A DNA stretch of 64,000 nucleotides, taken from IMG/VR virus record IMGVR_UViG_3300031857_000025. The stretch is one strand, 5' to 3'. The notes beneath the pieces were generated by a model that was not told where the DNA came from, did no database searches, and worked only from the letters and a program-made list of their open reading frames with translations. The DNA comes from a virus. This document shows, piece by piece, positions 23,373-60,941 of the stretch. Every line of letters begins with the position of its first letter. Positions within the stretch are counted from its first letter, which is position 1. The position numbers were made by a program, and so were the translations under genes.

Positions 23373-23921
23373 ATGACCGAATTACCAAAATCAACAGTAC
23401 AAACAGTAGTATCGTCACAAGATAGTGTTATGTTACCAAAAACATTGACACCAGAAATTGTGAACGTACTTAACTCTGCAATTGCAGAAGAATATGCCGC
23501 TCATTATTTTTATAGAGGAGCTGCTAACTGGTGCCAAGGAGTTGGATATACTAAAGCGGCAGCGTTTTTTGCTAGTGAAGCAATTGCAGAATTAGAGCAT
23601 GCTGAGAAGTTACAAAAGTATATAGTAGATTGGAATGCTACTCCGTTACTGCCATCTATAAAATTTAACGGTGAGTTTGCTCATTTAATTGATGTTGTTA
23701 ACAAATCATATGCTATTGAATACCAATTAGGTAACAAGTATATGACCTGGACACGTCAAATGTTTGATACTCATTTAATGACATTTAATTTCCTTCAAGG
23801 ATATGTAGATATTCAGAATGGGTCTATTGCAGAAATGTCAGATCTATTAAATGCTGCGCAGCTAGTTGATACATCAAATAAATTAGATTTATTACATTAT
23901 GAAGAAAGATACTTTGGTTAA
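23373..23921 (+). CDS. Ferritin-like protein
   Basis: LNSAIAEEYAAHYFY...AAFF...ELEHAEKL...IE...TFNFLQ.Y...Q four-helix ferritin pattern. Confidence 0.85.
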   Translation: MTELPKSTVQTVVSSQDSVMLPKTLTPEIVNVLNSAIAEEYAAHYFYRGAANWCQGVGYTKAAAFFASEAIAELEHAEKLQKYIVDWNATPLLPSIKFNGEFAHLIDVVNKSYAIEYQLGNKYMTWTRQMFDTHLMTFNFLQGYVDIQNGSIAEMSDLLNAAQLVDTSNKLDLLHYEERYFG

Positions 23922-34663: not shown

Positions 34664-35149
34664 GTGTATATGACAAGATATGTCTCAACAAAGCTATTCG
34701 AAAACTACTCTGTCGCTATTCGTCAATGGAAAGCACAACATTCTCATTGCCAACTATTACATGGTTATGCTTTGAAGTTCAAAGTATGGTTTGCTAGTAA
34801 TGAGCCAGATATTGATAACCAATTAGATGATATGAATTGGATTGTTGATTATGGTGGATTTAAAACTCCGCCTCAGGGTAATGGACTAAAAGATTGGATG
34901 AATCATATGTGGGATCATACAACATTAATTCAAAAGGATGATCCTTACCGTGATTTGTTTGAATCTATGCAAATGGAAGGTATATGTAAAGTGCACTTCC
35001 TAGATAAAATGGGAGCGGAGAGTTGTGCTCGTTTAGTATATGAACATTTCAATAAGGTATTATCTAATACTGATGCTGGTAGATGTAAATGTATTAAAGT
35101 AGAATGTTTTGAAAATGATAGTAACAGTTCAATTTACGAAGAAATATGA
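34664..35149 (+). CDS. queD: 6-carboxy-5,6,7,8-tetrahydropterin synthase
   Basis: HCQLLHGY, IVDYG, WDHTTL, GAES.AR and C-terminal FEND.NS (T-fold); adjacent to queE. Confidence 0.88.
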   Translation: MYMTRYVSTKLFENYSVAIRQWKAQHSHCQLLHGYALKFKVWFASNEPDIDNQLDDMNWIVDYGGFKTPPQGNGLKDWMNHMWDHTTLIQKDDPYRDLFESMQMEGICKVHFLDKMGAESCARLVYEHFNKVLSNTDAGRCKCIKVECFENDSNSSIYEEI

Positions 35150-35928
35150 AACCAGGTAGAATAACAGATTATAATAAACAGTTACCAATAGTAGAATTAT
35201 ATTATTGTGTACAGTCAGAGGGTAGCCGTTCTGGTATGCCAACCGTATGTGTACGTACTACCGGATGTACTCATAGATGCTGGTTCGGAGAAGGCGGATG
35301 GTGTGATTCATGGTATACTAGTATTCATCCAGAGAAAGGAGGATTTAGTTTTAATGATATCAAAAAGATGTATGATGATCGTCCAGATATCAAAGAAATG
35401 ATGTTAACAGGTGGTTCACCTACTATGCATCCTGATCTAGTAAATGAATTAACTCATTTTGCTAATGAACGTGGTATTTTAATTACAATGGAAACGGAAG
35501 GTAGTCATTTCATTGAAACAGATTATCCAATTGGATTGATTTCATTGTCACCTAAGTTTAGTAATAGCGTACCTAAGGTCGGCGTTGCAACTCCTAAAGG
35601 AGCTACTACTGATCAGCGTATGATAGATCAACATAATAAGTTTCGTCTTAAGTATGATGTGATGAAACAGATGATTGCTTATCATTCTGATTATCATTTC
35701 AAGCCAGTATGTAATCCTACGGAAATGCCTGAGGTATGGGAAGAAATAGAAAAAGCTAGAGAAACATTAGGAATTCCAAAAAATAAAACTTATATTATGC
35801 CTCCAGGTGATAATAGAGATGAACTTATCAGAGTATATCCAATGGTAATGGACTTCTGTAGAGATAATGGATTTAATTTTACAGGTCGAGAGCATATCAT
35901 TGCTTTTGATACTAAACGATGTGTATAA
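35146..35928 (+). CDS. queE: 7-carboxy-7-deazaguanine synthase (radical SAM)
   Basis: ELYYCVQSEG, VRTTGCTHRC-x7-CDS, LTGGSP, METEG, SLSPK, REH. Confidence 0.9.
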   Translation: MKPGRITDYNKQLPIVELYYCVQSEGSRSGMPTVCVRTTGCTHRCWFGEGGWCDSWYTSIHPEKGGFSFNDIKKMYDDRPDIKEMMLTGGSPTMHPDLVNELTHFANERGILITMETEGSHFIETDYPIGLISLSPKFSNSVPKVGVATPKGATTDQRMIDQHNKFRLKYDVMKQMIAYHSDYHFKPVCNPTEMPEVWEEIEKARETLGIPKNKTYIMPPGDNRDELIRVYPMVMDFCRDNGFNFTGREHIIAFDTKRCV

Positions 35929-35942
35929 AAAGGAGAATAGTT

Positions 35943-36239
35943 ATGAACATGAAACCAATGGGCGACCAGGTGTTGCTGAAAGAAAGAGAAAAGAAAGAAA
36001 AAACGACTTCAGGTATTATTCTTATGAATGGAGCTGAAGGTTACTATGTAACGGCAGATGTTATTGCAGTAGGTGATGGTTTGTTTACTCAAACCGGAGA
36101 TCGTATTCCAATGACAGTCAAGCCAGGTGACATTGTTATGATACATAAGAATGACACTACAGATAATAAAAAAGTAAAAATTGATGATCAGGAGTATGTA
36201 CTAGTACGTGAATCTGATATCGCAATGTATCAACAATAA
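35943..36239 (+). CDS. groES: Co-chaperonin GroES
   Basis: MKPMGDQVL...TTSGII...VIAVGDG...VKPGD.V...YVLVRESDI; SD AGGAG before ATG 35943. Confidence 0.9.
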   Translation: MNMKPMGDQVLLKEREKKEKTTSGIILMNGAEGYYVTADVIAVGDGLFTQTGDRIPMTVKPGDIVMIHKNDTTDNKKVKIDDQEYVLVRESDIAMYQQ

Positions 36240-36240
36240 T

Positions 36241-36960
36241 ATGGCAGAAAAGAAACAATTAGGTAACTCGTTAGAAACTGTACAATCAGGATTTGCTAAC
36301 GGTGTATCAAGTCATTTGGCAAAGAAACAAGCTCTCGAAGGTCCAAATGCTAAACTATCACAAGACGAAAAGCAACAAATTATCGATGAAGCTGCATATT
36401 ACTTTGCAAAGTTTTTATCGGCATTAGGTGTTGATTGGGAGAATGATCCTAATTCAAATGATACACCTCGACGTGTTGCAAAGGCATATGTAAATGATTT
36501 ATGGGCAGGTCGATTCAATTCGGCTCCGGAGATTACAGCATTTCCTAGTGACGGATATGATGGTATAGTATTTGAGGGGGGTATTCCATTGACTTCAATG
36601 TGTTCGCATCATCATCAGACTATTATGGGTAGAATCCATGTAGCATATATTCCAGGTGAGAATGGTAAGGTTGTAGGTTTAAGTAAACTTAATCGTATTG
36701 TTGAGCATTTTGGAAGACGTGGTGCAATACAAGAACAGTTAACAGTTGCCATTCATAATGCAGTTAATACTATTATTGAAGACAATAAAGGTGTAGCTGT
36801 TATGGTAGAGGCTACTCATAACTGTGTACAATGTCGTGGTGTTAAACATGGCGGAGCTAGTATGAAGACATCTAAACTAACTGGTGCATTCAAAGAAGAT
36901 CCAGCTACAAGAAATGAGTTTTATGAATTTATAAGAGGTTATGGAAATACTAATTCCTGA
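36241..36960 (+). CDS. folE: GTP cyclohydrolase I
   Basis: DTPRRVAK, SMCSHHH, VAYIP, VGLSKLNR, IQEQLT, HNCVQCRGV. Confidence 0.93.
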   Translation: MAEKKQLGNSLETVQSGFANGVSSHLAKKQALEGPNAKLSQDEKQQIIDEAAYYFAKFLSALGVDWENDPNSNDTPRRVAKAYVNDLWAGRFNSAPEITAFPSDGYDGIVFEGGIPLTSMCSHHHQTIMGRIHVAYIPGENGKVVGLSKLNRIVEHFGRRGAIQEQLTVAIHNAVNTIIEDNKGVAVMVEATHNCVQCRGVKHGGASMKTSKLTGAFKEDPATRNEFYEFIRGYGNTNS

Positions 36961-37444
36961 ATATAAAATTGAGCGTAGAGTAAGAGCTCTAGCTCATAAG
37001 ATTACAGAAGATCATAGGAACAGTGGTAATTCATTGCCACCTGTACTAGTCTGTGTATTAAACGGTGCGTTCATGTTCTTTTCTGATTTAGTTAAGGACA
37101 TGGGTACGGATTGTGAAATCGATTTTATTAGACCTAAGTCATACCATGGCCAAGATAATTCCGGTGGTGTTAAATTTTATAAGGAATTAGAATTGGATCT
37201 TAAAGGTAAGCGGGTTTATATTATTGAGGATATTGTCGATACTGGTTCTACTATGTTAGAGATTTTACAAAAGGTAGATGATCGCCGACCCGCCGAAATA
37301 CGAGTTGTTACATTGGTACATCGTAAAGGAAGTAAGCATCATGTTGACTTTAATGCCTTTGAAATTGAAGATGAGTGGGTAGTTGGATATGGACTCGATG
37401 ATAACGGATTAAAAAGAAACTATAGAAACATTTATAAGAAATAA
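36941..37444 (+). CDS. hpt: Hypoxanthine/guanine phosphoribosyltransferase
   Basis: VCVLNGAFMFFSDL, KSY, PRPP-binding motif VYIIEDIVDTGST, WVVGYGLD, RN. Confidence 0.9.
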   Translation: MEILIPEYKIERRVRALAHKITEDHRNSGNSLPPVLVCVLNGAFMFFSDLVKDMGTDCEIDFIRPKSYHGQDNSGGVKFYKELELDLKGKRVYIIEDIVDTGSTMLEILQKVDDRRPAEIRVVTLVHRKGSKHHVDFNAFEIEDEWVVGYGLDDNGLKRNYRNIYKK

Positions 37445-39915
37445 TGTACCAAGCAGTAGCATATCAACAAAGGACTAATACTGTCCATATTTGGGATGAC
37501 CAGAAAGGTCATTTGCAGATCAAGTATAAACCATATGCATATCGTAAATCAAGTTACGGTAAGTATGTAGCATTAGATGGTAATACTGTCGATAAAGTAT
37601 TTCAGTTTGACAAAGAAGAAGAAGGACTATACGAGGCAGATATTAATCCGGAGACAAGAACATTAATTGATATGTATACAGATTCAGATGATTTATCTAT
37701 AGGTCATAGTACCATGTTTATAGATATTGAGGTTGATATTGAAAACGGATTTCCTACTCCAGAAGAAGCTCAGAATGAAGTAACATCAATTGCAATTTAT
37801 GACCAGGCCGGCGATAATCGAAAGGTATGGGTGCTAGATAAGGCAGGAGTAGTGACATCCACCAACTTAATTACATCATGTCGTACAGAGTATGAATTGT
37901 TACAACAGTTCTTATTAAGTTACTATGAGATCAAGCCAACTATTATTACTGGATGGAATATTGATTTCTTTGATATTCCGTATTTGTATAATCGTATGTG
38001 TAAGATATTAGGTGAGAATATTGCCCGTACATTATCTCCTATTAAAGATGTCATATGGCTGAAACATCGTAACAGATATCGAATCTCCGGAGTTAGTTGT
38101 TTAGATTACTTAGCATTATATAAAAACTTTACTTATTCAGAAGAGTCTAGTTATTCTTTAGAAGCTATATCTCAAAAAGAATTAGGCAGAGGTAAGCTTA
38201 AGTATGATGGTAACCTTAATGATTTAATGCGTACGGATATCAATAAGTATGTAGAGTATAACTTAAATGACGTTGAGCTGGTACTTGAGATTGATAACAA
38301 GATGAAATTGTTAGACTTGGCTCGAGGTATTTGTCATAAAGGGCATGTACCATATGAGGATGTATATTTCTCTACTAGATACTTAGATGGCGCATCATTA
38401 ACTTATCTTAAACGCTTAGATATTGTCGCTCCAAGTAAAAGACCTAGAGAAGAAGGACAAGGTGTTGATCTGTTAGGAGCATACGTTAAGGTACCTGTAC
38501 CGGGGCGTTATAAATGGATATACGACCTTGACTTAACCTCGCTATATCCTAGTATCATTATGACACTTAACATTTCACCTGAAACGAAATTGTTTAAGTT
38601 AGATAAATTTGATGGTAAGGAATATGTAAAGAATACTGGTACTCATTATTCATATCGTGATACTGGTTGGGCTACAAGTGAAGAATTACGTAATCATCTA
38701 GAGACGAACAAGTATTCAATTGCAGCTAATGGAGTTGTATATAAGACAGATGAAAAAGGATTCATACCATCTATTCTTGAGAAGTGGTTTAAAGAACGTG
38801 TTGATTATAAGAATCTTAAGAAGAAGTATGAAAAGGAAGGAGATAAAGCCAAGGCAGAATACTTTGATAGATTACAGTTAGTGACGAAGATCTTGCTTAA
38901 CTCATTCTATGGAGCGTTAGGTAATGCCGGATTCCGATTCTTTGATCCTGATAATGCAGTGGCTGTAACAAGTACGGGTCAGCAGTTAATTAAGTTTACG
39001 GCTGATATTGGTAATATGTTTTATAAGAAAGAGTTAGGAGTTGAAAAAGATTATTGTATTTATACAGATACAGATTCAACTTTCTTTTCATCATTACCTA
39101 TCATACAGAAACGATATCCAGATGGTAATATAACAGATGAACAATGGATGGCAGAAAAGACTATTGAAGTAGCTAATGAAGTACAAGCATTTATCAATAA
39201 GTCATATGATATGTACGCCAGTAAGTTCCATAATGTTAATACTCATAGATTTGATATTAAGCAAGAGTTTGTAGCCAAGGCAGGTATTTGGATTGCCAAG
39301 AAACGATATGCCCAATGGCTAATCAATCAGGAAGGTCATACTATATCTCGTTTGGATGTTAAAGGTATGGACGTTGTTAGATCAAGTTTCCCAGTAGCGT
39401 TCCGTAAGTTCATGTCTGAGGTATTGAAAGATATCTTAAATGATATTGATAAGACTGCATTGGATACCAAGATCTTAAATTTCAAAGATAACCTAAAGAC
39501 ATTACCGATATTAGATATCATGGCACCTACTGGTGTTAAAGAGATAAGCAAGTATACTACTAAGCATGCTAAGCCATTTGCAATGCGACCAAAAGGTACT
39601 CCGGTCCATGTTAAATCAGCATTAAACTATAATGATCTTCTTAAGCATCATAGTATTACAAATATTCGTGAGATCATGGACGGTGAAAAGATTAAATGGT
39701 GTTACATAAAAACAAATCCATTGAACTTGGATTCATGTGCATTGAAAGGATATGATGATCCAGAACCTATATGGAATTTTGTAGAACAGTATATAGACCA
39801 TGATAAAATCTTTAAGTCAGCATTTCAAAATAAACTAAATGACTTCTATCAGGCACTTAATTGGGGTAGTGTTCCTGAGAATAACAATATGGCAAAATTC
39901 TTTAGTTTTTCTTAG
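37444..39915 (+). CDS. Family-B DNA polymerase (T4 gp43-like)
   Basis: Exonuclease motifs DIE, TGWNIDFFD and YNLNDV; polymerase motifs DLTSLYPS, KILLNSFYG, YTDTDS and KKRY. Confidence 0.95.
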   Translation: MYQAVAYQQRTNTVHIWDDQKGHLQIKYKPYAYRKSSYGKYVALDGNTVDKVFQFDKEEEGLYEADINPETRTLIDMYTDSDDLSIGHSTMFIDIEVDIENGFPTPEEAQNEVTSIAIYDQAGDNRKVWVLDKAGVVTSTNLITSCRTEYELLQQFLLSYYEIKPTIITGWNIDFFDIPYLYNRMCKILGENIARTLSPIKDVIWLKHRNRYRISGVSCLDYLALYKNFTYSEESSYSLEAISQKELGRGKLKYDGNLNDLMRTDINKYVEYNLNDVELVLEIDNKMKLLDLARGICHKGHVPYEDVYFSTRYLDGASLTYLKRLDIVAPSKRPREEGQGVDLLGAYVKVPVPGRYKWIYDLDLTSLYPSIIMTLNISPETKLFKLDKFDGKEYVKNTGTHYSYRDTGWATSEELRNHLETNKYSIAANGVVYKTDEKGFIPSILEKWFKERVDYKNLKKKYEKEGDKAKAEYFDRLQLVTKILLNSFYGALGNAGFRFFDPDNAVAVTSTGQQLIKFTADIGNMFYKKELGVEKDYCIYTDTDSTFFSSLPIIQKRYPDGNITDEQWMAEKTIEVANEVQAFINKSYDMYASKFHNVNTHRFDIKQEFVAKAGIWIAKKRYAQWLINQEGHTISRLDVKGMDVVRSSFPVAFRKFMSEVLKDILNDIDKTALDTKILNFKDNLKTLPILDIMAPTGVKEISKYTTKHAKPFAMRPKGTPVHVKSALNYNDLLKHHSITNIREIMDGEKIKWCYIKTNPLNLDSCALKGYDDPEPIWNFVEQYIDHDKIFKSAFQNKLNDFYQALNWGSVPENNNMAKFFSFS

Positions 39916-39944
39916 GTTTTTTAAGAGTTTGTATTTATATTTAG
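39913..39944 (+). promoter_or_regulatory. Early/middle promoter of the ORF-GT-dpdA-clamp operon
   Basis: TAGGTT-N17-TATATTTAG. Confidence 0.5.
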
Positions 39945-39966
39945 TCAAATTAAAAAATAATAAGTT

Positions 39967-40383
39967 ATGTACGGTGAGCAGTATTGGTATGGTAAAGAGG
40001 TCGAAGGTCGATACTCTGATGTTGAAACAGTTTTTGTAAGAAGTGGTATTCCTACGGATATTTTAGAGTATCCTCATGCATACTTTACAATTGAGTATGT
40101 GCGAGAAATGATTAAAAAGAATGATTGGTCAATTGTACATATGATTCTTAAGACTCGTCAAATTGTAACGGTCGAAGCTACTGCTGATACATTAGATCAT
40201 ATTCCAATGTCAGTATTTAATAGAGCACATATTATCTATCGTATTCCTGATAGTCATTTGGCTAAACTAAAGAAAACTGATACATTGTCAATTGATGCTG
40301 GTTGGTACCGAGTTCATCAGATTATGAAATGCAACTTAATGGAAATCAATCCAGATGATTATAAATTCGATAGATTAAAGTAA
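39967..40383 (+). CDS. Hypothetical protein coupled to the GT-DpdA genes
   Basis: 138 aa (YWYGKEVEGR...TVFV...Y.FD); TAATG overlap with the next gene. Confidence 0.65.
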   Translation: MYGEQYWYGKEVEGRYSDVETVFVRSGIPTDILEYPHAYFTIEYVREMIKKNDWSIVHMILKTRQIVTVEATADTLDHIPMSVFNRAHIIYRIPDSHLAKLKKTDTLSIDAGWYRVHQIMKCNLMEINPDDYKFDRLK

Positions 40384-41573
40384 TGAAAAGAAATATATTT
40401 TATTTTGGCCTAGAGCCATTAAAAGCTAGATATACTTATCAGCTATGCGAAGAATGGATGCCTAAAACTTTTGAGGCATACAAAGATCGTTTAAACTTTA
40501 TTCCGATGCCAGGAGAGTTCGATCCCGATCAAGAAATCAAAGTAGGTGCCGTGTTAGATGCAATTGGTAGAGGCAAGTATAGTTTGACTCAATGTCAAAA
40601 CTTCTTGAAAATGATCTATGATGGTACGGTTAAAGACGGTGACGTTATTTTCTTGCAAGACTATTGGACTCCAGGTTTAGATGCTATTTGGTATGCTTTG
40701 GATTTATATAATATCAAAGTTAAGGTATATGCAATGTTACATGCTCAATCAGTTGATGAATATGACTTTACATATCCGATGGCATATTGGATGCGTCATT
40801 ATGAGTTAGGATTGGATCAACGCATGACCAGTATCTTTGTAGGAAGTACTATCCATAAAGAACAATTGAGAGCGGCTGGGTTCAAAGCTCCTATACATGT
40901 TGTATCGTTACCGATTCATAAACAAGCTACATTAGATGTATTACCTGAATGGAATACATTGGATAAGAAAAATGTAATTGTATACTCAAGTCGATTTGAT
41001 AAGGAAAAGAATCCATTCTTCATGATGGAAGTAGCTGAACAGTTCTTGAAAAAGAATCCGCGATATGAATGGCACGTAACTACATCCGGCAAAGAGTTCC
41101 GTAGTATGTTACCAGGTGTTATCGATGCTATGAATGCATTAGCAAAACGTCAGCCTAGATTTAAAATGTTGAAAGGTTTAACTAAGCAAGAATATTATAC
41201 AGAGTTAGCTACATGTAAGGTACAGTTTAATACATCATTACAAGATTATGTATCATGGACTGTTATCGAGTCAACTGCATTTGGAGCTGATATCGTGTTT
41301 CCTAATTTCAGATCATTCCCAGAGTTTATTGATGCATCTCGATTGTATAAACCGTTTGATGTTCAAGATGCGTTAACGGTATTAAATAATGTACTAGGTA
41401 ATACTAAAACTCATTATGATATTGTTGATCGTTCTGACTTGGGTAGACAAATGGAAGGATATATCATTGCCAATGATTTTGATAAGGAGATATGTATTTG
41501 GCATGAAACAGAATATTGTAAAGCACTTATCAATAGTGAAGTAAAAAATAATCAATTGGAGTTAGAACTATAA
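40383..41573 (+). CDS. GT-B (GT4-like) glycosyltransferase
   Basis: SSRFDKEKNP...LTKQEYY.EL...FNTSLQD...IES.AFG...P.FRSFPE donor-binding half; TAATG-coupled on both sides. Confidence 0.75.
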   Translation: MKRNIFYFGLEPLKARYTYQLCEEWMPKTFEAYKDRLNFIPMPGEFDPDQEIKVGAVLDAIGRGKYSLTQCQNFLKMIYDGTVKDGDVIFLQDYWTPGLDAIWYALDLYNIKVKVYAMLHAQSVDEYDFTYPMAYWMRHYELGLDQRMTSIFVGSTIHKEQLRAAGFKAPIHVVSLPIHKQATLDVLPEWNTLDKKNVIVYSSRFDKEKNPFFMMEVAEQFLKKNPRYEWHVTTSGKEFRSMLPGVIDAMNALAKRQPRFKMLKGLTKQEYYTELATCKVQFNTSLQDYVSWTVIESTAFGADIVFPNFRSFPEFIDASRLYKPFDVQDALTVLNNVLGNTKTHYDIVDRSDLGRQMEGYIIANDFDKEICIWHETEYCKALINSEVKNNQLELEL

Positions 41574-42760
41574 TGAAAAATCTAATATACTACCCGTCAT
41601 TATCAGCAGGAGGCTGTGCTGGCGACTTTAAAAATAACAAAGAAGTAAAGCCAGGATTAACTAGCCGCTTCTATTCAAAGGAGTTTCCGGAACCATGGAG
41701 ACATCCTTATTTTCTAATTACAGCTGGTCACCATTATAAATGGATGGATGCTCGTCAAAGATATGGTTTAGAAGAAGATGTAAAGGTATTGGGCGATTCG
41801 GGTGGTTTCCAGTTAGCGACTGGTGCTATCAAATGGGATCCGAAGTTCAAAGAAACTATCTTTCAATGGTTAGAGCAAAATTGTGATATCGGAGTTAATC
41901 TTGATATTCCGCCTCGCGTGAAGTATGATGGTAAGTTCTATGAGTGTTTAGATATTAGCTATGATAACTTTAAATACTTTGCTGAGAACCAAACGGGTAA
42001 GTGTAAGTTCTTAAATGTTGTACAAGGTAACAATGTTAATGAATATGATATCTGGTATAACCGTGTCAAGGACTTTGATTTCAATGGTTGGTCGATCGGA
42101 GGTACACAGAAAGGTATAGCGTTGTTTATGGCCGCTTTGGTACCAATGTTAAGACATAAAGAATTTGAAAAAGAACGTAATATGTATGTACACGTATTAG
42201 GTATTTCAAAGATATCAGATTTCTTTATGTTGAGCTTCTTTCAAAAGATGCTAAATAAGTATCATGGAGGTCGTATACAAGTATCAACTGACTCTAGTTC
42301 ACCGGGTCAATATCCTGTATATGGTACATACTTGCATTCACCACAGTTAACTAAAATGACATTCACTCATTTGTATTTTCCTAAAGGTGATAATCTTCCT
42401 TATAATCCAACTGACCTAGTACCTAATCCATATGGTCATCCAGTAAGTGAAGGATTTACTTTTGGCGAGGTAGCTAACTATAAAGGTGATGTTACAATGA
42501 AGATGACCTTGAATAACTTGTTTGTATATAATGAAACGGTTAAGCAGGTAGAACAAATTGTACATTGTCATAACGAATTACTACAAACGGTTGTACCTAC
42601 GGATTTATATAATATATTAATGAGTATGGAAGAAATGTTTCAGAACCCAGACCAGGCTTTACATATCTATGAAAAGAATATTCAATTGTATAGTAAGTAT
42701 GGTGGAACAACTAATGACATGGTAAATAATAACGTAATAACTCAATTCTTCGAGATATAA
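41573..42760 (+). CDS. dpdA: DpdA / TGT-family guanine transglycosylase
   Basis: LGDSGGFQ, NLDIPP, NVVQG, GWSIGG, HVLG and STDSSS TGT-barrel motifs; in the folE/queD/queE neighbourhood. Confidence 0.82.
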   Translation: MKNLIYYPSLSAGGCAGDFKNNKEVKPGLTSRFYSKEFPEPWRHPYFLITAGHHYKWMDARQRYGLEEDVKVLGDSGGFQLATGAIKWDPKFKETIFQWLEQNCDIGVNLDIPPRVKYDGKFYECLDISYDNFKYFAENQTGKCKFLNVVQGNNVNEYDIWYNRVKDFDFNGWSIGGTQKGIALFMAALVPMLRHKEFEKERNMYVHVLGISKISDFFMLSFFQKMLNKYHGGRIQVSTDSSSPGQYPVYGTYLHSPQLTKMTFTHLYFPKGDNLPYNPTDLVPNPYGHPVSEGFTFGEVANYKGDVTMKMTLNNLFVYNETVKQVEQIVHCHNELLQTVVPTDLYNILMSMEEMFQNPDQALHIYEKNIQLYSKYGGTTNDMVNNNVITQFFEI

Positions 42761-42761
42761 T

Positions 42762-43481
42762 ATGAAAAAGACAGAACTATTAAATTACATCAGCCGTTAT
42801 CACCTAGCCGGCGCAACTACTTCAGTTAAGTGGAATGCAAGTGGTGGATCATTACAAAGTAGTTTTATTACTGATGACCAGAACGTAATTGGTTCTGTAT
42901 CAGCTAATATTGACTTAGGTAATCAGACATTAGGCGTTTATGCAACACCTCAATTGGTAAAAATGTTATCTGCAGTAGGAGATGATGTTGAGATTGATGT
43001 CAAGGATATTGACGGCAAAGCTGTTAGTATGGATATTTCAGATAAAGAAGTTAACATGACATTTATGTTAGCAGACTTATCAGTTATTCGTCAGGTACCT
43101 GAATTAAAGCAATTGCCAGATTGGAATGTTATGGTACCATTGGACAAGGAATTTGTAAGTAGATTTATCAAGGCAAAGAATGCATTACCTGAGTCTGAAA
43201 ACTTTGGTGTTAATTGCAAGAACGGTAAAACTGAGTTTATTGTAAATTATTCTTCTATTAATACTAGTCGTATTAAATTTGAAGTTACATGCCAAGCAGA
43301 TACTTGTAAGAATATGGATACGGTATGTTTTTCTAGTAACCTATTCAAAGAAATTCTCCAGGCAAATAAAGATGCAGAGACTGCAAAACTAGAAGTATCT
43401 CAGGCAGGTTTAGCTCGTGTAACATTTGCATCTCAAAACTATACATCAACTTATTATTTGGTTCAATTACAAACTGCATAA
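42762..43481 (+). CDS. Sliding clamp (gp45 / PCNA-like)
   Basis: 239 aa, a size consistent with a two-domain clamp; C-terminal L.VS.AGLARVTF....Y.STYYLV; lies between PolB and the clamp loader. Confidence 0.7.
   Translation: MKKTELLNYISRYHLAGATTSVKWNASGGSLQSSFITDDQNVIGSVSANIDLGNQTLGVYATPQLVKMLSAVGDDVEIDVKDIDGKAVSMDISDKEVNMTFMLADLSVIRQVPELKQLPDWNVMVPLDKEFVSRFIKAKNALPESENFGVNCKNGKTEFIVNYSSINTSRIKFEVTCQADTCKNMDTVCFSSNLFKEILQANKDAETAKLEVSQAGLARVTFASQNYTSTYYLVQLQTA

Positions 43482-44099: not shown

Positions 44100-44122
<23 letters not shown>
43922..44122 (+). CDS. Small hypothetical protein
   Basis: MAKKKIVEP..., 66 aa, fills the gap between dut and the clamp loader. Confidence 0.5.
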
Positions 44123-46665
<2,543 letters not shown>

Positions 46666-46677
46666 TTAAAGAAAATT

Positions 46678-46905
46678 ATGGCAAAGAAAAATATCAATGA
46701 AACAGTAGGACAAAAGCGCATCAGCGCAGAAGACCTTCCAAATATTGTATGTGAAAATTGTGGTGGTAGATTTTTTAGACAGGTGCATGCTTTTAAGCGT
46801 GTGCCTGCTATTTTATCTCAATCTAGCAAAGAAGAAATTGTTCCAATTCCAACTTTTCGTTGTGACGACTGTGGTCATATCAATGAAGAATTTATGCCTA
46901 TATGA
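46678..46905 (+). CDS. Zinc-ribbon protein
   Basis: CENCG...CDDCGH. Confidence 0.65.
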   Translation: MAKKNINETVGQKRISAEDLPNIVCENCGGRFFRQVHAFKRVPAILSQSSKEEIVPIPTFRCDDCGHINEEFMPI

Positions 46906-47363
46906 GTGATAAACCTGTAACAAAAGCAGCTACTATATTTGATCATTTATCTAATATTACGGATAAGAAAAAGGACTGGAGTTCTCTATCAGAAGCAGAT
47001 CGTAAGTCCTTTAGTCCTTATCTAATTAATAGATGGCTATCAATGGATCCGGATCTTATTGAGATAGTAAATGAGTTTCAACATTATACAATAGGTGTTT
47101 TAGATACTAAACATGTATACCAGTTATATCATGATCTGTTACCTAAACGTAAATTCTTTACAAAGTATATTAAAGGTAAGTCAGAGGATAAGTATAATAA
47201 GGATCTGATTGAGTTTATTGCTGATCATTATGCTGTATCTAAGCGAGAAGCTACAGAATATATTAGTATGATGATAGATTTGGATTCTACAGAGTTAGTC
47301 GGTATATTAAGCAAGTACGGTAAAACGGAAAAAGAAATTAAGAACTTATTAAAAACAAAATAA
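46902..47363 (+). CDS. Clamp loader small subunit (T4 gp62-like)
   Basis: IFD.L..I...K...FSPYLINRWLS...NE.Q...Y...LPKRK.F.KYIK...A.HY.VS.REA.EY. Confidence 0.7.
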   Translation: MSDKPVTKAATIFDHLSNITDKKKDWSSLSEADRKSFSPYLINRWLSMDPDLIEIVNEFQHYTIGVLDTKHVYQLYHDLLPKRKFFTKYIKGKSEDKYNKDLIEFIADHYAVSKREATEYISMMIDLDSTELVGILSKYGKTEKEIKNLLKTK

Positions 47364-47650: not shown

Positions 47651-48589
47651 ATGCAAAAATTCCTACAGTTTAATATACGAGAGCCTAAGGAGGGCGAGCG
47701 TAAAGTATCTTATTCCCAATTTTCAATGTATTCGACTTGTCCTAAACAATGGCATCTAGCATATGTTAAAGGACTACGTACTTTTAGTCAGAGTATACAT
47801 ACTTTGTTCGGTACATGTTTACATGAGACATTACAAGAATATCTAACTGTAATGTATACTGAATCCATTAAGAAAGCTGATAGTATTGATTTTAGAACGG
47901 TATTGAAAGACAAGATGTTCAACCAATACAAAGAAGCTGTAGCGCAAATGGATAATAAACATTTCTCTAACAAGTTCCAGCTTAATGAGTTTTATGATGA
48001 CGGCATTGCTATTTTAGAATGGATACGTAAACGTCGTACTGAATACTTTTCGTCCAAGTATGAAGAGTTGGTAGGTATTGAAGTTCCGATATATCATCCC
48101 GTAGGAGCAGACCGTCCAGTGTTCATGATGGGATTCTTGGACGTAGTTATACGTAATACTAAGACTAATAAGATTACAATATTAGATATCAAGACAAGTA
48201 CTAACGGTTGGAATAAGTATCAGAAGGCAGATAAACTCAAGGCATCTCAATTAGTTTTATACAAAGAATACTTTGGTGAGCAGTTCGGTGTTGATAAGGA
48301 GAGTATTGATATCAAGTACTTTATCGTGAAACGTAAACTAATTGATGGTGCAATGTTTCCTCAGAAACGAGTACAAGAGTTTGTTCCGGCAAGCGGTAAG
48401 CCTACTCGTAACAAGTTATTGAAAGAAATTTATACTTGGGTTGAGAGTAGTTTTAACGCTGATGGTAGTTATAATGAAGAAAGAGAATATCCTGCTATTG
48501 CTGGTAAGAATTATAAAAATTGCAAGTATTGTGAATTTGCAGAAGATGATGAATTATGTCCAATGAAAAACAGAATAAAATTAAAATAG
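47651..48589 (+). CDS. PD-(D/E)xK exonuclease (RecB/AddB/Cas4-like, with Fe-S cysteines)
   Basis: SYSQ...CP, FGT.LHE, GFLDVV, LDIKTS, QL.LY, CKYCEF...C. Confidence 0.85.
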   Translation: MQKFLQFNIREPKEGERKVSYSQFSMYSTCPKQWHLAYVKGLRTFSQSIHTLFGTCLHETLQEYLTVMYTESIKKADSIDFRTVLKDKMFNQYKEAVAQMDNKHFSNKFQLNEFYDDGIAILEWIRKRRTEYFSSKYEELVGIEVPIYHPVGADRPVFMMGFLDVVIRNTKTNKITILDIKTSTNGWNKYQKADKLKASQLVLYKEYFGEQFGVDKESIDIKYFIVKRKLIDGAMFPQKRVQEFVPASGKPTRNKLLKEIYTWVESSFNADGSYNEEREYPAIAGKNYKNCKYCEFAEDDELCPMKNRIKLK

Positions 48590-48591
48590 GT

Positions 48592-48993
48592 ATGAAGGTT
48601 GCTGTTATCGGAAGTCGCCAGTATGAAAACGTACGTAAGATTAAAGATACATTAACTAACTTACGTCAGAAGTTCGGAGATGAATTAGTTATTATCTCAG
48701 GCGGAGCTAAGGATGGGGCTGATAAGTATGCTAGGAAGTATGCATTAGAGTTTGGTATACGATATAAAGAGTTTAATCCAGCTCATACTCCTAGAAATTT
48801 ATATAGTGCCATGTCAGATGAGTATTATGGTAAGCCATATCATGTCAGTCAATTTCATCATAGGAATCAGTTATTAGCTCGAGACTGTGATGTTATGATA
48901 GCATTTATACCTCAGGGAGTTAAATCAGATGGCAGTTTGAGTGCCATTAAAAGTGCTGAAAAATATAACAAGAAGGTTGTTATCATTTCATAA
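48592..48993 (+). CDS. SLOG-superfamily (YspA / DprA-like) protein
   Basis: VAVIGSR, IISGGA.DGAD, RN..L...CD.MIAF, SDGS. Confidence 0.75.
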   Translation: MKVAVIGSRQYENVRKIKDTLTNLRQKFGDELVIISGGAKDGADKYARKYALEFGIRYKEFNPAHTPRNLYSAMSDEYYGKPYHVSQFHHRNQLLARDCDVMIAFIPQGVKSDGSLSAIKSAEKYNKKVVIIS

Positions 48994-49036: not shown

Positions 49037-50491
49037 ATGAATCAGTTACAATTACCAAAATTACGTAAAATTGATCCTAACAAGCCAAAGAAAAAGAAAA
49101 TTCTTTTACTATCTGATGACCTGCGTATGCATTCTGGTATAGCCACAATGTCACGTGAGTTTGTATTAGGTACAGTAAAAGAGTTTGATTGGATCCAGTT
49201 AGGAGCTGCTATTAAGCATCCGGATGCAGGACAAATGCTAGATCTAAGCGCAGATGTGGCTAGAGAAACCGGTGTAGAGGATGCATCGGTTAAACTTATG
49301 CCATATAATGGTTATGGCGACGCTCATGTATTAAATTATCTAATTAATACAGAAAAGCCAGATGCAATATTACATTTCACTGATCCTAGATTCTGGGGGT
49401 GGTTATATCAGTTAGAACATACTATTCGTCAGCATATACCAATCATGTATTATAATATATGGGATGATTTACCATATCCACATTGGAACGAACCATTTTA
49501 TGAGTCATGTGATTTAATTATGAACATTTCACGTCAAACTCAGAATATCGTAAAAAATGTATTGCAGAAGTTTCCTAAAGAGGAATGGGCAGTTCAGTAT
49601 GTACCTCATGGTATTAATGAAAACAGGTTTTTCCCGATCACAGCTGATCATGATCAATATAAAGAATTTGACATGTTTCAGTCTGACTTTAAAATTAAAA
49701 ACGAAGTCGATTTTATAGTATTCTGGAATAATCGTAATATACGTCGTAAACAGCCAGGTGATTTAATTTTAGCATATAAAACATTTTGTGATAGTTTACC
49801 AAAAGAAAAGTCTAGTCGTTGTGCGTTATTAATGCATACTCAACCTATAGACGAAAATGGTACAGATCTATTTGCCGTTAAAAACGCTGTGTGTCCAGAA
49901 TATAAAGTATTATTTAGTGATCGAAATATTGATACTAAAATGCTGAACTTCTATTATAACATGGCAGATGTAACTGTTAATATCGGTTCTAATGAAGGCT
50001 TTGGGTTATCAGGTGCTGAATCATTAATGGCAGGCACACCTATTATTAATAATGTAACAGGTGGATTACAAGATCATTGCCGATTTGAAGATGAATCTGG
50101 TAAATGGATTGAATTTACGACTGAGTTTCCTAGTAACCATACTGGTAAATATACTAAATGTGGTAAATGGGCTAAACCTGTAATACCGACGAATAGGTCA
50201 CTTCAAGGTTCTATACCTACACCATATATCTTTGATGACCGTGTACGATTTGAAGATGTAGCGGATGCAATTATGTATTGGTATTCAATGTCTAATGAAG
50301 ATAGAACCGCATGCGGTTTAGCTGGACGTGAATGGGTTACATCAGAAGAGTCGATGATGTCGGCTCGTAGAATGAGTGAACGATTTATTGAGTGTATTAA
50401 TTCATGTTTAACTAATTGGACTAAACGCAAAAAATTTACATTATTTAAAGTAGAACAAGAACCAAAATTTGATAAAATAGGTGTAATATGA
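49037..50491 (+). CDS. GT-B (GT4-like) glycosyltransferase
   Basis: SDD...SG, PHGI, NRNIRRK, YYN.AD, SNEGFGLS.AESL.AGTP. Confidence 0.85.
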   Translation: MNQLQLPKLRKIDPNKPKKKKILLLSDDLRMHSGIATMSREFVLGTVKEFDWIQLGAAIKHPDAGQMLDLSADVARETGVEDASVKLMPYNGYGDAHVLNYLINTEKPDAILHFTDPRFWGWLYQLEHTIRQHIPIMYYNIWDDLPYPHWNEPFYESCDLIMNISRQTQNIVKNVLQKFPKEEWAVQYVPHGINENRFFPITADHDQYKEFDMFQSDFKIKNEVDFIVFWNNRNIRRKQPGDLILAYKTFCDSLPKEKSSRCALLMHTQPIDENGTDLFAVKNAVCPEYKVLFSDRNIDTKMLNFYYNMADVTVNIGSNEGFGLSGAESLMAGTPIINNVTGGLQDHCRFEDESGKWIEFTTEFPSNHTGKYTKCGKWAKPVIPTNRSLQGSIPTPYIFDDRVRFEDVADAIMYWYSMSNEDRTACGLAGREWVTSEESMMSARRMSERFIECINSCLTNWTKRKKFTLFKVEQEPKFDKIGVI

Positions 50492-51816
50492 AACCATTCG
50501 TTGTAATACAGGGACCGGTAGCTACCCGGTCAGGCTATGGAAGCCATACTAGAGATTTAGTTACAAGTTTAATTAACTCAGATAAATATGATATACAGAT
50601 AATATCATTACCATGGGGCGTAACTCCAATGGATGCATTGGATCCAAACAATATAGATCATCAAGAAATTGTTAAACGTATTGCAGTGCAAAACATAACA
50701 CGCCAGCCAGATATTTTTATACAGGTGTCAATTCCAAATGAGTTCCAACCACATGGTAAATATAATATTGGAATAACAGCTGGAATAGAAACTGATACAG
50801 TGTCAGCTGAGTTTATTGAGGGATGTAATCGTATGAATTTAATTCTTACTACATCGGAACATTCTAAACAAGGCTTTATTAATACTAAGTATGACAAGCT
50901 AGATAAAAATACTAATCAAAAAATTGGTGAATTACGTTTAGAAAAACCGATTGAAGTATTATTCGAAGGCGTAGATTTAGACGTATATAAAAAGACCAAT
51001 GACATTAATGAACTAGTGTTAAATGAACTCAATTCAATAAAAGAAGGGTTCAATTTTCTATTTGTAGGACATTGGTTAAAGGGAGAGTTAGGTGCTGATC
51101 GAAAGGATGTCGGAATGCTCATTAAAACATTTTGTGAAGCATTTAAAAATAAATCAGCACAGAATAAACCAGGATTAATTCTTAAGACTAGTCATGCTAC
51201 TTTTAGTATTATCGATCGTGAAGAACTCATGAAAAAGATTAATATGATAACGGCGCCATATGGTAAATCGGCACCTAGTATTTATTTACTGCATGGTGAC
51301 TTAACTGATGAACAGATGAACAGTCTATATAATCATCCTAAGATTAAAGCTATGATATCATTTACTCATGGTGAGGGATATGGACGTCCATTATTAGAAT
51401 TTACATTATCAGAAAAACCTGTTATAACCAGTAACTGGTCGGGTCATATAGATTTCTTAAAACATGCAACTTTATTACCGGGAGATGTTAAGGAAGTACA
51501 TCAATCGGCTACAGATAACTGGATACTTACTGGCAGTAAATGGTTTACGGTGAATTATGGTTATGCAGCTAGTATAATGCGTGATATACCAGATAACTAT
51601 AAAAATTATCTTACTTTAGCAAAACGACAGGCATATATATCACGTACTGATTTTAGTTTAACTAAAATGGCTGAAAAATTCTGTGAAATTGTAGATACTG
51701 CGGCAGATAGTATACCTAAACAAATACAACTTCAATTACCTAAATTGAAAAAAATATCCAATGCATCTGAAACATCTAAGATTACATTACCTAAATTAAA
51801 AAAGATTGAAGCATGA
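50488..51816 (+). CDS. GT-B glycosyltransferase
   Basis: SGYG, FLFVGHW...RK, GEGYGRP.LE...KPVI.SNWSGH.DF. Confidence 0.82.
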   Translation: MKPFVVIQGPVATRSGYGSHTRDLVTSLINSDKYDIQIISLPWGVTPMDALDPNNIDHQEIVKRIAVQNITRQPDIFIQVSIPNEFQPHGKYNIGITAGIETDTVSAEFIEGCNRMNLILTTSEHSKQGFINTKYDKLDKNTNQKIGELRLEKPIEVLFEGVDLDVYKKTNDINELVLNELNSIKEGFNFLFVGHWLKGELGADRKDVGMLIKTFCEAFKNKSAQNKPGLILKTSHATFSIIDREELMKKINMITAPYGKSAPSIYLLHGDLTDEQMNSLYNHPKIKAMISFTHGEGYGRPLLEFTLSEKPVITSNWSGHIDFLKHATLLPGDVKEVHQSATDNWILTGSKWFTVNYGYAASIMRDIPDNYKNYLTLAKRQAYISRTDFSLTKMAEKFCEIVDTAADSIPKQIQLQLPKLKKISNASETSKITLPKLKKIEA

Positions 51817-52301
51817 AACTAGATTATGATGAACTATCGCCTATTACTAATAACCTATGTGTACTAGTTGAGGCATTAGATAATGGCATGAATTCATATA
51901 TGTGTATGGAATCGGGTTTTGTTACTAATGATATGTTACGTATTGAGAGTGATATGGTAACTCAATATGAACAGCATATGTCGCAACTAATGCGTGATGT
52001 AAAGCATATAGATGAGTCGCGTGGGTTAGTTTGGTATCCGACGTATATGCAAGTAGGAAATTTTGCATTATATTGTACCGGCACTTCTGCTAAAGATTTA
52101 GGATGGGAAATTGCTGCTATAGTACCGTTATCTGAGGAAGATAGTAAAAACTATCCAATTCCAGGACAAGAAGGTCAGTATTTCACATCACGTATTGATA
52201 CTGATAATAGTCAATTCTTTATCGATTTTACATCAGCAATGAATGCAATGTACAGTTCAGTTGCGAAATTATATCATGAAAATTTGGAAACGGAGTCATA
52301 A
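51813..52301 (+). CDS. Hypothetical protein
   Basis: 162-aa ORF overlapping the upstream GT by ATGA; no recognised motif. Confidence 0.6.
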   Translation: MKLDYDELSPITNNLCVLVEALDNGMNSYMCMESGFVTNDMLRIESDMVTQYEQHMSQLMRDVKHIDESRGLVWYPTYMQVGNFALYCTGTSAKDLGWEIAAIVPLSEEDSKNYPIPGQEGQYFTSRIDTDNSQFFIDFTSAMNAMYSSVAKLYHENLETES

Positions 52302-52318
52302 TTTAATATATTCAGTGT

Positions 52319-52942
52319 ATGAAAATTAGTTATGCAATAACAGTTTGTAATGAGTTGAAGGAGATTAGCAGATTAGTTAATCTCCTTCACCAAAACAAAC
52401 GCATGGAAGATGAGATTTGTGTTTTATTAGATAAACCAAAAGCATCACAAGAATTATTAGATGAACTTTATTATTGGTCATCCAAAGATATAATCACTTT
52501 AAAGGAAAGCGTATTTCAAGGTCATTTTGCAGACTGGAAAAACGAACTAACCAAAATGTGTTCGGGAGATTATATTTTTCAAATTGATGCCGATGAATAT
52601 CCTCATGAATATCTAATCGAAACATTACCTGAAATATTAGAAACTAATTCTGACGTAGAGGTATATGTTGTTCCAAGAGTTAATACAGTGGACGGTTTAA
52701 CAACACAACATATACAAAAATGGGGATGGCATGTAAATCAAGATGGATGGGTGAACTGGCCAGATCGTCAATGGAGATTATATAAAAATTCTCCGAACAT
52801 TAAATGGAAAAACAAAGTGCATGAAGTGATTGAAGGTTATAAAATAATGGCCCAATTACCGGCATATGAAGATTTTTCTTTATATCATCCAAAAACAATA
52901 GAAAGACAGGAACGTCAAAATAACTACTATGAATCAATCTAG
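52319..52942 (+). CDS. GT2 glycosyltransferase
   Basis: ISYAITVCNE, GDYIFQIDADE, WPDRQWRL, W...VHE. Confidence 0.85.
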   Translation: MKISYAITVCNELKEISRLVNLLHQNKRMEDEICVLLDKPKASQELLDELYYWSSKDIITLKESVFQGHFADWKNELTKMCSGDYIFQIDADEYPHEYLIETLPEILETNSDVEVYVVPRVNTVDGLTTQHIQKWGWHVNQDGWVNWPDRQWRLYKNSPNIKWKNKVHEVIEGYKIMAQLPAYEDFSLYHPKTIERQERQNNYYESI

Positions 52943-53783
52943 CCCGCTCACTTTTTGTATATCAACATATAATAATCTGCCTTATCTTAAGATAGCAATA
53001 GATTCGGTTAGAAAAAATAGTTATTTTAAAGAAGCGCCATTTATAGTTCATTCGGAAAATTGTACAGATGGTACTAACGAATGGTTATTTGAAAACAAAG
53101 AAAGATATAATTTAACATTAGTTATCGAGCCTCAAACTATCGAAGTTAGGGGTATAGGTGGCGGTATGAATGTTTGCGCAGATCATGTCGAAACAGAATA
53201 TATAATGTTTCTGCATTCAGATTTTTATGTTACTAAAAACTGGGATATTGAATTGTTAAAAATACATGAACGATATCCTAATGAAAAGTTATGGGTGAAC
53301 TCTTATAGGATTGAGCCTAATACATTTAATTCCCCAGACCGTCATGGTACAACATTTGTTCCTTTAGATATGTTTGGTGCATATCATTATAATTTCAATT
53401 CAGAAGAATTTGAACAATGGGCTGATGAATTTAAAGTTATGAATCAGTCATATGAAGTCCCAAAAGGTGAAGGTGTTTCGGGTCTAGTTAAAAAAATGGT
53501 ATGGGATGAAGTAGGTGGTAATGATCCAATATTTGCTCCGGCTAGTTGGGATGATATGGATTTATTTTTACGTATGTTACAACATGAAGTTAGATTCGTA
53601 TTACCTGCTACTTCAATAGTATGGCATTTTGGTGCCAGGGGTAGTCATCGATTAGAAGAGAATAATGGGCAAACATCACAACGACAGCGAGATTCAGAAC
53701 AAAAAAATATACAAAAATGGTTGTATAAATGGAAAAGATTACCTATATTTAACGAATATGGTATGATAGAAAAGTTTAATTAA
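52929..53783 (+). CDS. GT2 glycosyltransferase
   Basis: TFCISTYNN, CTDGT, EYIMFLHSD, VGG.D..F...DD.DLF.R, VWHF. Confidence 0.82.
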   Translation: MNQSSPLTFCISTYNNLPYLKIAIDSVRKNSYFKEAPFIVHSENCTDGTNEWLFENKERYNLTLVIEPQTIEVRGIGGGMNVCADHVETEYIMFLHSDFYVTKNWDIELLKIHERYPNEKLWVNSYRIEPNTFNSPDRHGTTFVPLDMFGAYHYNFNSEEFEQWADEFKVMNQSYEVPKGEGVSGLVKKMVWDEVGGNDPIFAPASWDDMDLFLRMLQHEVRFVLPATSIVWHFGARGSHRLEENNGQTSQRQRDSEQKNIQKWLYKWKRLPIFNEYGMIEKFN

Positions 53784-53798
53784 ATAAAAAGGAGACAG

Positions 53799-55108: not shown

Positions 55109-55113
55109 AAATA

Positions 55114-55737: not shown

Positions 55738-55743
55738 TTTAAT

Positions 55744-57894: not shown

Positions 57895-57895
57895 T

Positions 57896-60930: not shown

Positions 60931-60941
60931 AGGATAATTAT

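Follow-up and report, generated by a model that had tools for sequence, protein, structure and literature searches.

The modifications of DNA with 7-deazaguanines that we found described each carry a small 7-substituent, and a 2023 paper reports that the deazaguanine is inserted post-replicatively in all known cases (PMC10516641). In Cellulophaga phage phiST, FolE, QueD, QueE, DpdL and DpdA3 lead to 7-deazaguanine in DNA (dDG) (Hutinet, Cui et al. 2023, PMC10516641), and for the DpdA2 enzymes examined to date the insertion of preQ0 or preQ1 is at a low level (PMC10516641). Here we analyse a stretch of 64,000 nucleotides (the window) from the IMG/VR virus record IMGVR_UViG_3300031857_000025, a fragment of an aquatic T4-like myophage that reaches from tail genes (tail sheath at 10364-12505) through the replication module. 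Positions 34664-42760 of this window encode QueD, QueE and FolE together with a DpdA-like enzyme of the tRNA-guanine transglycosylase (TGT) fold, a GT4-type glycosyltransferase (GT) and a small conserved protein from an open reading frame (ORF) that we call ORF138. To our knowledge, all known DNA glycosylation falls on pyrimidines (base J, glucosylated hydroxymethylcytosine and related bases). Judged from its gene content and conservation, the best reading of this locus is that it makes a glycosylated 7-deazaguanine in DNA, a reading in which our confidence is evenly balanced. The sequence-only reading of this DNA, which proposed such a base, knew of no characterised glycosylated deazaguanine in DNA, and our literature search likewise found no paper reporting one.

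Within 34664-42760 the genes are, in order, those for QueD, QueE, GroES, FolE, a hypoxanthine-guanine phosphoribosyltransferase (HGPRT), a family B DNA polymerase (PolB), ORF138, the GT and the DpdA-like enzyme, followed by a sliding clamp and a dUTPase:

34664..35149, plus strand: QueD-like 6-carboxytetrahydropterin (CPH4) synthase (PF01242, PTPS, E 6e-11; phrog_2389, E 6e-32)
35146..35928, plus strand: QueE, 7-carboxy-7-deazaguanine synthase, radical SAM (PF04055, Radical_SAM; phrog_2076, E 2e-45)
35919..36239, plus strand: GroES co-chaperonin, interleaved in the cluster (PF00166, E 1e-21)
36208..36960, plus strand: FolE, GTP cyclohydrolase I (PF01227, E 1e-47)
36941..37444, plus strand: HGPRT (TIGR01203, 152.3 bits, above the equivalog cutoff of 150)
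37444..39915, plus strand: family B DNA polymerase, PolB (PF00136/PF03104; phrog_262, E 2e-191)
39967..40383, plus strand: ORF138, small conserved protein (91 cluster representatives in its family; AlphaFold model pLDDT 97)
40383..41573, plus strand: GT4-type (GT-B) glycosyltransferase (PF00534 at 24.5 bits, below the cutoff of 26.4; assigned by homologs and motifs)
41573..42760, plus strand: candidate DpdA-like DNA guanine transglycosylase, TGT fold (PF01702 in homologs, fold match, catalytic loops)
42762..43481, plus strand: sliding clamp, gp45-like, PCNA-type, the presumed docking platform (NF002222, E 1.5e-5, a weak match)
44100-45029 and 46902-47363: clamp-loader genes

The QueD, QueE, FolE, ORF138, GT and TGT-like genes that the sequence-only reading had named were all found where it had placed them. 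Direct reading also bore out its TAATG coupling of the ORF138-GT-DpdA triplet, with overlaps at 40381-40385 (ORF138 and GT) and 41571-41575 (GT and DpdA-like gene), as well as the run of the triplet into the clamp gene, where the junction reads TAA-T-ATG at 42758-42764 with a one-base gap. HGPRT and GroES, which lie within the same gene run, had been overlooked.

The evidence for a functional tie between the GT and the DpdA-like enzyme, which the sequence-only reading had assumed, comes from conservation across phages. We compared 75 close relatives and a set of divergent loci in which DpdA is only 47-51% identical and enough upstream sequence is available. The GT was kept in 44 of the 44 divergent loci and in every close relative with enough upstream sequence, and its identity in the divergent loci (63-76%) makes it more conserved than DpdA, PolB and the clamp. 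Furthermore, a tblastn search of 50,697 phage records gave 17 matches to the GT, and every inspected group of phages with a homolog (all but BUDD) has TGT-like or que genes, with the GT lying inside deazaguanine clusters in five or more cultured phage groups that are unrelated. It adjoins or lies near DpdA in the Pseudomonas jumbo phage PA5oct (cluster of DpdA-like, GT, DpdL, epimerase-like ORF and QueE), in Acidovorax phage ACP17 (QueD, FolE, DpdA, GT, DpdL and QueE, with the GT directly after dpdA), in X1 and BCSR5 (PP-loop protein, PIG-L-like deacetylase, ORF138 homolog, GT, DpdA and QueE, plus DpdL within the same locus) and in Synechococcus phage BUCT-ZZ01 (QueE, XGPRT, QueD, FolE, a second GT4, DpdA, DpdL and GT). 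DpdL directly adjoins the GT in Phosso, and in PhiXhv-12 a GT homolog follows GlmS and a BshB-like (PIG-L) deacetylase. This retention in all divergent loci and recurrence in unrelated cultured phages support a functional link between GT and DpdA.

The enzyme itself has the marks of a GT4 glycosyltransferase. Most of its homologs at 73-90% identity carry PF00534, for which its own score falls just short of the gathering score, and residues R204, E208, K209 and E296 are invariant. The donor-binding Arg/Lys and the [D/E]x7E motif are retained (D-x7-E in the window, E-x7-E in X1 and ACP17). The family profile matches the solved GT4 enzymes WbaZ, Gtf1 and WlaC (E up to 3e-4) and, more weakly, MshA (7qsg, E 0.076), and its nearest Atlas clusters are nearly all viral. 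A GT-B enzyme in a T4-like replication module might instead decorate a hydroxymethylated pyrimidine, as the T4 alpha- and beta-glucosyltransferases do, with dpdA merely adjacent, and complete relatives do encode a ThyA-family protein. This protein, however, scores as a canonical thymidylate synthase (274-295 bits) and is encoded far from the GT, and across distant phages the GT co-occurs with deazaguanine genes and not with hydroxymethylases; we consider a pyrimidine target quite improbable.

Further sugar enzymes embedded in the clusters of relatives count in favour of a glycosylated base: PIG-L in BCSR5 and X1, GlmS with PIG-L in PhiXhv-12, the epimerase-like ORF in PA5oct and the second GT4 in BUCT-ZZ01. 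In X1 (locus L079, 6341-7529) and BCSR5 (locus L080, 6161-7528), a PAPS-reductase-like PP-loop protein and the PIG-L-like deacetylase precede the ORF138-GT-DpdA triplet. Such gene content suggests a chemistry of carboxylate activation plus de-N-acetylation of N-acetylglucosamine (GlcNAc). By analogy with known GT4 and PIG-L pairs, the pairing in BCSR5, X1 and PhiXhv-12 suggests GlcNAc transfer followed by de-N-acetylation. Neither a PIG-L nor a PP-loop partner gene was found in the window, and fused forms of the GT were not found either, which is weak evidence.

The first part of the pathway is established biochemistry: FolE, QueD and QueE convert GTP into 7-carboxy-7-deazaguanine (CDG). No PP-loop motif, as expected of QueC, occurs in the six frames of the window, and a Pfam scan of 66 window ORFs (most, not all, of those of at least 90 residues, with a few large and several small ORFs left out) gave no que families other than QueD, QueE and FolE. 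The absence of QueC noted by the sequence-only reading is borne out within this coverage of the 64 kb, and it extends to the relatives. No QueC (PF06508) was found in ten related viral contigs, including one that is 95% and one that is 100% complete (CheckV), and neither QueF nor DpdL was found in the three longest of the related contigs, two of them near-complete, each of which has exactly one PTPS-family gene. The motif of DpdL, a QueD paralog, is LxxxHRHxF; it does not occur in the window, and the window QueD carries C-Q-L-L-H-G-Y, which retains the catalytic Cys and is not a DpdL motif. Since no QueC, QueF or DpdL was found and the only QueD has the catalytic Cys rather than the DpdL motif, the encoded pathway is predicted to end at CDG. 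The QueD proteins of the window, ACP17, BUCT-ZZ01, BCSR5 and PhiXhv read SHCxxxHGY where CxxxHGH is quoted for QueD. The third His of the motif, a zinc ligand in E. coli QueD, is Tyr in these phage clusters.

A 7-deazaguanine DNA system that stops at CDG without QueC, as had been proposed, is therefore supported by the FolE, QueD and QueE genes, the QueC searches and the TGT fold. What does not stand is the novelty of the missing QueC alone, because phiST makes dDG without it (PMC10516641). What is distinctive here relative to phiST is the lack of DpdL together with the presence of ORF138 and the GT. The same comparison bears on where a sugar could sit. The DpdL motif was found in ACP17, X1, BCSR5 and BUCT-ZZ01, and the GT travels with DpdL in these four, in PA5oct-type phages and in Phosso. 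DpdL is a proposed CDG decarboxylase that removes the 7-substituent. Since most cultured GT carriers also encode DpdL, the proposal that the sugar is attached to the 7-substituent is not favoured; it fits the DpdL-less clade of the window but, provided that DpdL does decarboxylate CDG, not the relatives that carry DpdL. If the GT does the same job in all of these phages, it would have to act at a position that CDG and 7-deazaguanine share, or else DpdL would have another role there. The attachment site could thus be the 7-carboxyl in the DpdL-less clade and would lie elsewhere in the DpdL-carrying relatives, for example at N2 or a ring carbon. In Vibrio phage Bakedbeans (gp176, 383 residues; locus L165, 6212-7363) and Chryseobacterium phage MA9V-3 (293 residues; locus L166, 6428-7309), DpdL forms the C-terminal portion of a larger protein.

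The enzyme that would place the base in DNA was recognised by fold. The protein encoded at 41573..42760 has no Pfam match of its own, its score against the DpdA family NF041059 is 16.9 bits (cutoff 200), the TgtA/DpdA matches in NCBIfam are only traces, and searches of the PDB by sequence, both direct and with a profile, returned nothing useful; only the fold search succeeded. It belongs to a family of metagenomic phage proteins of at least 492 clusters, and 13 of 27 sampled homologs match PF01702 weakly. The AlphaFold model (pLDDT 82) has a TGT-type TIM-barrel fold, and its top Foldseek matches are the archaeosine TGT (ArcTGT, 1j2b, E 1e-8), bacterial TGT and DpdA (7ui4, E 1.5e-6). The loops GDSGGFQ and TDSSSP are invariant across 27 sequences of the family, and they correspond to the two TGT loops that bear the catalytic Asp residues, one of the DSGGFQ type and one with the nucleophile. 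Residues ~280-295, where the zinc site is replaced in the window's clade, fall in a low-confidence part of the model.

An identity with DpdA3 was rejected, because the comparison with phiST CGPG_00065 (hhalign, with this single reference sequence as query) gave a probability of 0.2%; any relationship would be very remote. On the other side, the family matches the DpdA of ACP17 (hhalign 95.8%, E 7e-9, 145 columns), an enzyme that falls together with the DpdA2 proteins of Vibrio phages VH7D and nt-1. Given this lack of similarity to the phiST enzyme, the match to ACP17 and the grouping of the latter, the gene is a candidate DNA transglycosylase of the TGT superfamily, in a separate clade nearest to DpdA2. 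That a TGT-like enzyme whose best structural match is an archaeosine tRNA transglycosylase should act on tRNA is an obvious alternative, and one that we find very hard to credit: the alignments brought out no C-terminal domain of the PUA or another tRNA-binding type, the gene is placed between those for PolB and the clamp, its product's tail resembles that of the polymerase in four lineages, and a homolog is encoded by PA5oct, whose DNA contains modified G. The DNA of PA5oct withstands restriction enzymes whose sites contain G (PMC12191111), which lends experimental support to the view that clusters of the PA5oct type modify G. The position in a replisome operon, the polymerase-type tail and the modified G of PA5oct argue for DNA rather than tRNA as the substrate.

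The tail is the feature that joins this enzyme to the replication machinery. PolB of the window ends in ...ENNNMAKFFSFS and the DpdA-like protein in ...NNNVITQFFEI; the pattern N-x-x-[MILV]-x-x-FF at the extreme C-terminus occurs in only 2 of 191 window ORFs, these two. The terminal aromatic pair is kept in 26 of 27 members of the DpdA family. The same correspondence is seen, with other residues, in ACP17 (PolB ...SLDDLFE, DpdA ...TLDELFE), X1 (PolB ...SLESLFG, DpdA ...SLEELFG) and BUCT-ZZ01 (PolB ...TLDDFFS, DpdA ...SLDSFFD, second GT4 ...SLEDFFND), so that the motif co-varies between PolB and DpdA across these lineages and the window. It resembles a PCNA-interacting peptide (PIP), being an extreme C-terminal hydrophobic motif common to DpdA and its cognate polymerase. 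In PA5oct and BCSR5 the DpdA tail is unlike that of the phage's own polymerase. Because the tail changes together with that of PolB, it argues that the DpdA-like enzyme works on DNA at the replisome. We found no paper connecting DpdA and the sliding clamp. In BUCT-ZZ01, the second GT4-like protein (UTS52035; 6007-7350 of locus L078) adjoins DpdA, and its tail points to a candidate clamp-docked DNA glycosyltransferase. The window GT ends in ...NNQLELEL, which resembles the bacterial beta-clamp motif QL[SD]LF, and no other window ORF has QLE[LIVM] close to its C-terminus; a clamp tail as a family feature of the GT was rejected, since QLELEL is found in only ~25 of 144 homologs.

The HGPRT gene raises a different route to the same base. 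HGPRT would phosphoribosylate CDG, much as ToyH phosphoribosylates preQ0 in toyocamycin synthesis, the phage ribonucleotide reductase (RNR) would reduce the nucleotide and PolB would incorporate it, leaving DpdA a minor or repair-like role. The gene does lie inside the cluster, phosphoribosyltransferases (PRTases) recur in the BUCT-ZZ01 cluster and in phiST, and a class II-like RNR is encoded upstream. HGPRT is present in most, not all, relatives, however, and is missing from many that keep the rest of the cluster, whereas DpdA is universally kept, with its catalytic loops intact and its clamp tail present; in addition, insertion is post-replicative in all known cases (PMC10516641). We therefore judge pre-replicative incorporation improbable. 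Since HGPRT is optional in relatives, an accessory recycling role probably suits it better than an essential ToyH-like step.

ORF138 returned no match in Pfam, PHROG, NCBIfam or the PDB by sequence, its model gave nothing below E 0.1 in Foldseek, and the ESM Atlas gave no usable match. In a wider structural search (VIA), the top three matches were QueE structures (Z 5.3-5.7), which aligned over 110-120 of the 138 residues of ORF138, and its invariant N-terminal motif G-x-E-V-E-G-R-x-x-G-x-x-T-x-F-V-R aligns with the N-terminus of the window QueE; the hhalign comparison gave E 4e-4 and a probability of 35% over only 25 columns. ORF138 has one Cys, and the radical-SAM CxxxCxxC cysteines are missing after the FVR motif. 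As far as alignment and model allow, it is probably a QueE-derived ligand-binding or accessory protein without Fe-S cysteines. Its identification as DpdL was rejected, since the DpdL motif is missing and X1 and BCSR5 hold both genes. The longer members of the family have no informative fusion domains.

The proposed tie of this small ORF to DpdA stands in part. It is present in 42 of the 44 divergent loci and has homologs directly upstream of the GT in BCSR5 (hhalign 98.8%) and X1 (97.5%), but its association is less strict than that of the GT. Co-occurrence of the whole triplet across phages holds for the related contigs and for X1 and BCSR5, but no ORF138 homolog was detected in the ACP17, PA5oct and BUCT-ZZ01 loci, and phiST CGPG_00066 is not one.

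Several observations weigh against a sugar on the base. Some phages have DpdL and no GT nearby, DpdA-like genes without an adjacent GT exist (Peetri, GR7B, PhiXhv), and phiST and the Campylobacter and Flavobacterium phages are not among the GT matches; since the characterised complete-replacement phages are missing from these, base exchange does not require the GT. The window GT is acidic overall (isoelectric point 5.7), its QLELEL tail is confined to the minority of homologs given above, with no firm sign of DNA contact, and GTs are common in the genome, which has a separate large GT island within the window. Host QueC could complete the pathway, the link of ORF138 to QueE is weak, with Z below 6 and a probability of 35% in hhalign, and the zinc-binding CxxxCxxC of relatives at ~50% identity has become NPYGHPVS in the window's clade.

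These points are compatible with a plain, unglycosylated deazaguanine in the DNA, which could be the CDG form (dCDG), dPreQ0 or dADG by way of host QueC, or dDG if ORF138 replaces DpdL. The GT would then do something else, such as glycosylate a protein or a small molecule, or serve in counter-defence. The known DpdA systems checked, phiST included, indeed work without this GT (PMC10516641), and a tail that is not broadly conserved, an acidic enzyme and many other GTs in the genome count in its favour. Against it, the GT has DpdA or DpdL as its neighbour in five or more phage groups that are unrelated, and the 44 divergent loci all retain the pairing. The GT is also more conserved than its neighbours, extra sugar-processing genes are embedded in the clusters of relatives, and a clamp-tailed GT4 lies beside DpdA in BUCT-ZZ01. 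On this evidence we regard a plain deazaguanine as a serious contender, though an unlikely one.

For the glycosylated base, the mechanism that we propose starts with FolE, QueD and QueE, which would convert GTP to CDG. The DpdA-like enzyme would dock on the phage sliding clamp through its polymerase-type C-terminal tail and would exchange guanine for the deazaguanine base in freshly replicated duplex DNA, a step with good support. HGPRT might return the released guanine to GMP and GTP, feeding FolE again. The GT4 enzyme, helped by ORF138, may then add a sugar to the deazaguanine, a step with moderate support; the sugar could be a hexosamine or hexose from a uridine diphosphate (UDP) sugar, transferred on the DNA or just before insertion. 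Restriction would be blocked by the resulting base, a glycosylated 7-deazaguanine. In its most specific form, our prediction is that virion DNA of this clade and of PA5oct, ACP17, X1, BCSR5 and BUCT-ZZ01 carries a sugar-bearing 7-deazaguanine installed just behind the fork by a clamp-docked transglycosylase, in some phages also by a clamp-docked GT, with a polymerase-type tail. We put this forward tentatively, and a little short of evenly balanced.

If the prediction holds, a deazapurine bearing a sugar would add a new class to the known DNA bases. It would have consequences for restriction, CRISPR and glycosylase defences, for work on phage DNA by nanopore or with enzymes, and for the question of what modifies G in therapeutic phages of the PA5oct type. 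A clamp-docking tail on DpdA would account for very high levels of replacement by an enzyme that exchanges bases after replication, and it offers a reason why the heterologous expression of some phage DpdA enzymes failed, namely that partner proteins were missing. Moreover, several carriers of the GT-DpdA pairing are already in culture, so that the prediction is directly testable.

The surroundings of the cluster are those of a T4-like replication module, with a gp32-like single-stranded DNA-binding protein, RecA/UvsX, a flap nuclease, a DnaB-type helicase, RNR, PolB, clamp and clamp loader; the clamp gene is followed downstream by the dUTPase and clamp-loader genes. PolB shares 44% identity with the polymerase of Microcystis phage Mel-JY01 and ~33% with cyanomyophage gp43, and a nucleotide search of the phage collection with the region gave zero matches. 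GroES keeps its place between queE and folE in relatives, and the phage encodes GroEL (Cpn60, E 5e-78, at 45040-46665) as well. A scan for promoters and terminators gave sites no more frequent than in shuffled sequence. Upstream of the replication genes lies a ferritin-like protein (23373-23921), and a 435-residue ORF (22015-23322) has only a weak partial match to family A DNA polymerase. At 48556-48993, after a PD-(D/E)XK nuclease, is a SLOG-family protein (YspA/DprA-like). Since enzymes of the SLOG and LOG kinds act on nucleotides, by binding or cleavage, this protein might conceivably contribute to the supply of bases or nucleotides.

A glycan-gene island of low GC content (29-30%) occupies 49037-63854. 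It encodes two GT4-like enzymes (one weakly matching 'GT4-conflict'), four GT2, a GT11 fucosyltransferase-like protein and a DXD-type GT, two methyltransferases, and a probable NDP-heptose-type set made of a GHMP kinase, a SIS isomerase, a cytidylyltransferase-like protein and a GDP-mannose-dehydratase-like epimerase. The island may serve virion or host-surface glycosylation, or may be a source of sugar donors.

Set beside known systems, the GT of the window recalls two kinds of enzyme. BshA/BshB of bacillithiol synthesis and MshA/MshB of mycothiol synthesis are GT4 and PIG-L pairs, and in BCSR5, X1 and PhiXhv-12 the GT homolog is likewise accompanied by a deacetylase of the PIG-L type; the window differs in having no PIG-L gene, and its presumed acceptor is a deazapurine or DNA rather than malate or inositol phosphate. 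The T4 alpha- and beta-glucosyltransferases have a GT-B fold and add a sugar to a modified DNA base, hydroxymethylcytosine, after replication. The window GT shares with them the GT-B fold and the setting of a T4-like phage, but they belong to other GT families and no sequence similarity with it was detected. As whole clusters, PA5oct (Wroclawvirus) has a DpdA-like gene at 26% identity, followed by the GT and then DpdL, with QueE close by, yet it is an unrelated jumbo phage with a DpdA tail unlike that of its polymerase and without ORF138. ACP17 has a DpdA2-like enzyme that the window family matches over the catalytic half and has the same GT directly after dpdA; its DpdA, however, is only ~23% identical, and it has DpdL and not ORF138. 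With phiST the window shares the QueC-less route from GTP to CDG beside a polymerase gene, the purpose of replacing G in DNA and a PRTase, and the phiST FolE and QueE are 67% and 61% identical to those of the window. PhiST differs in having DpdL, in a short DpdA3 (259 residues) with no detectable similarity to the window enzyme, and in its absence from the GT matches. By its gene content, then, the locus appears to be a QueC-less deazaguanine system of a known kind, and it differs from that of phiST in bringing together a glycosyltransferase and ORF138 without DpdL.

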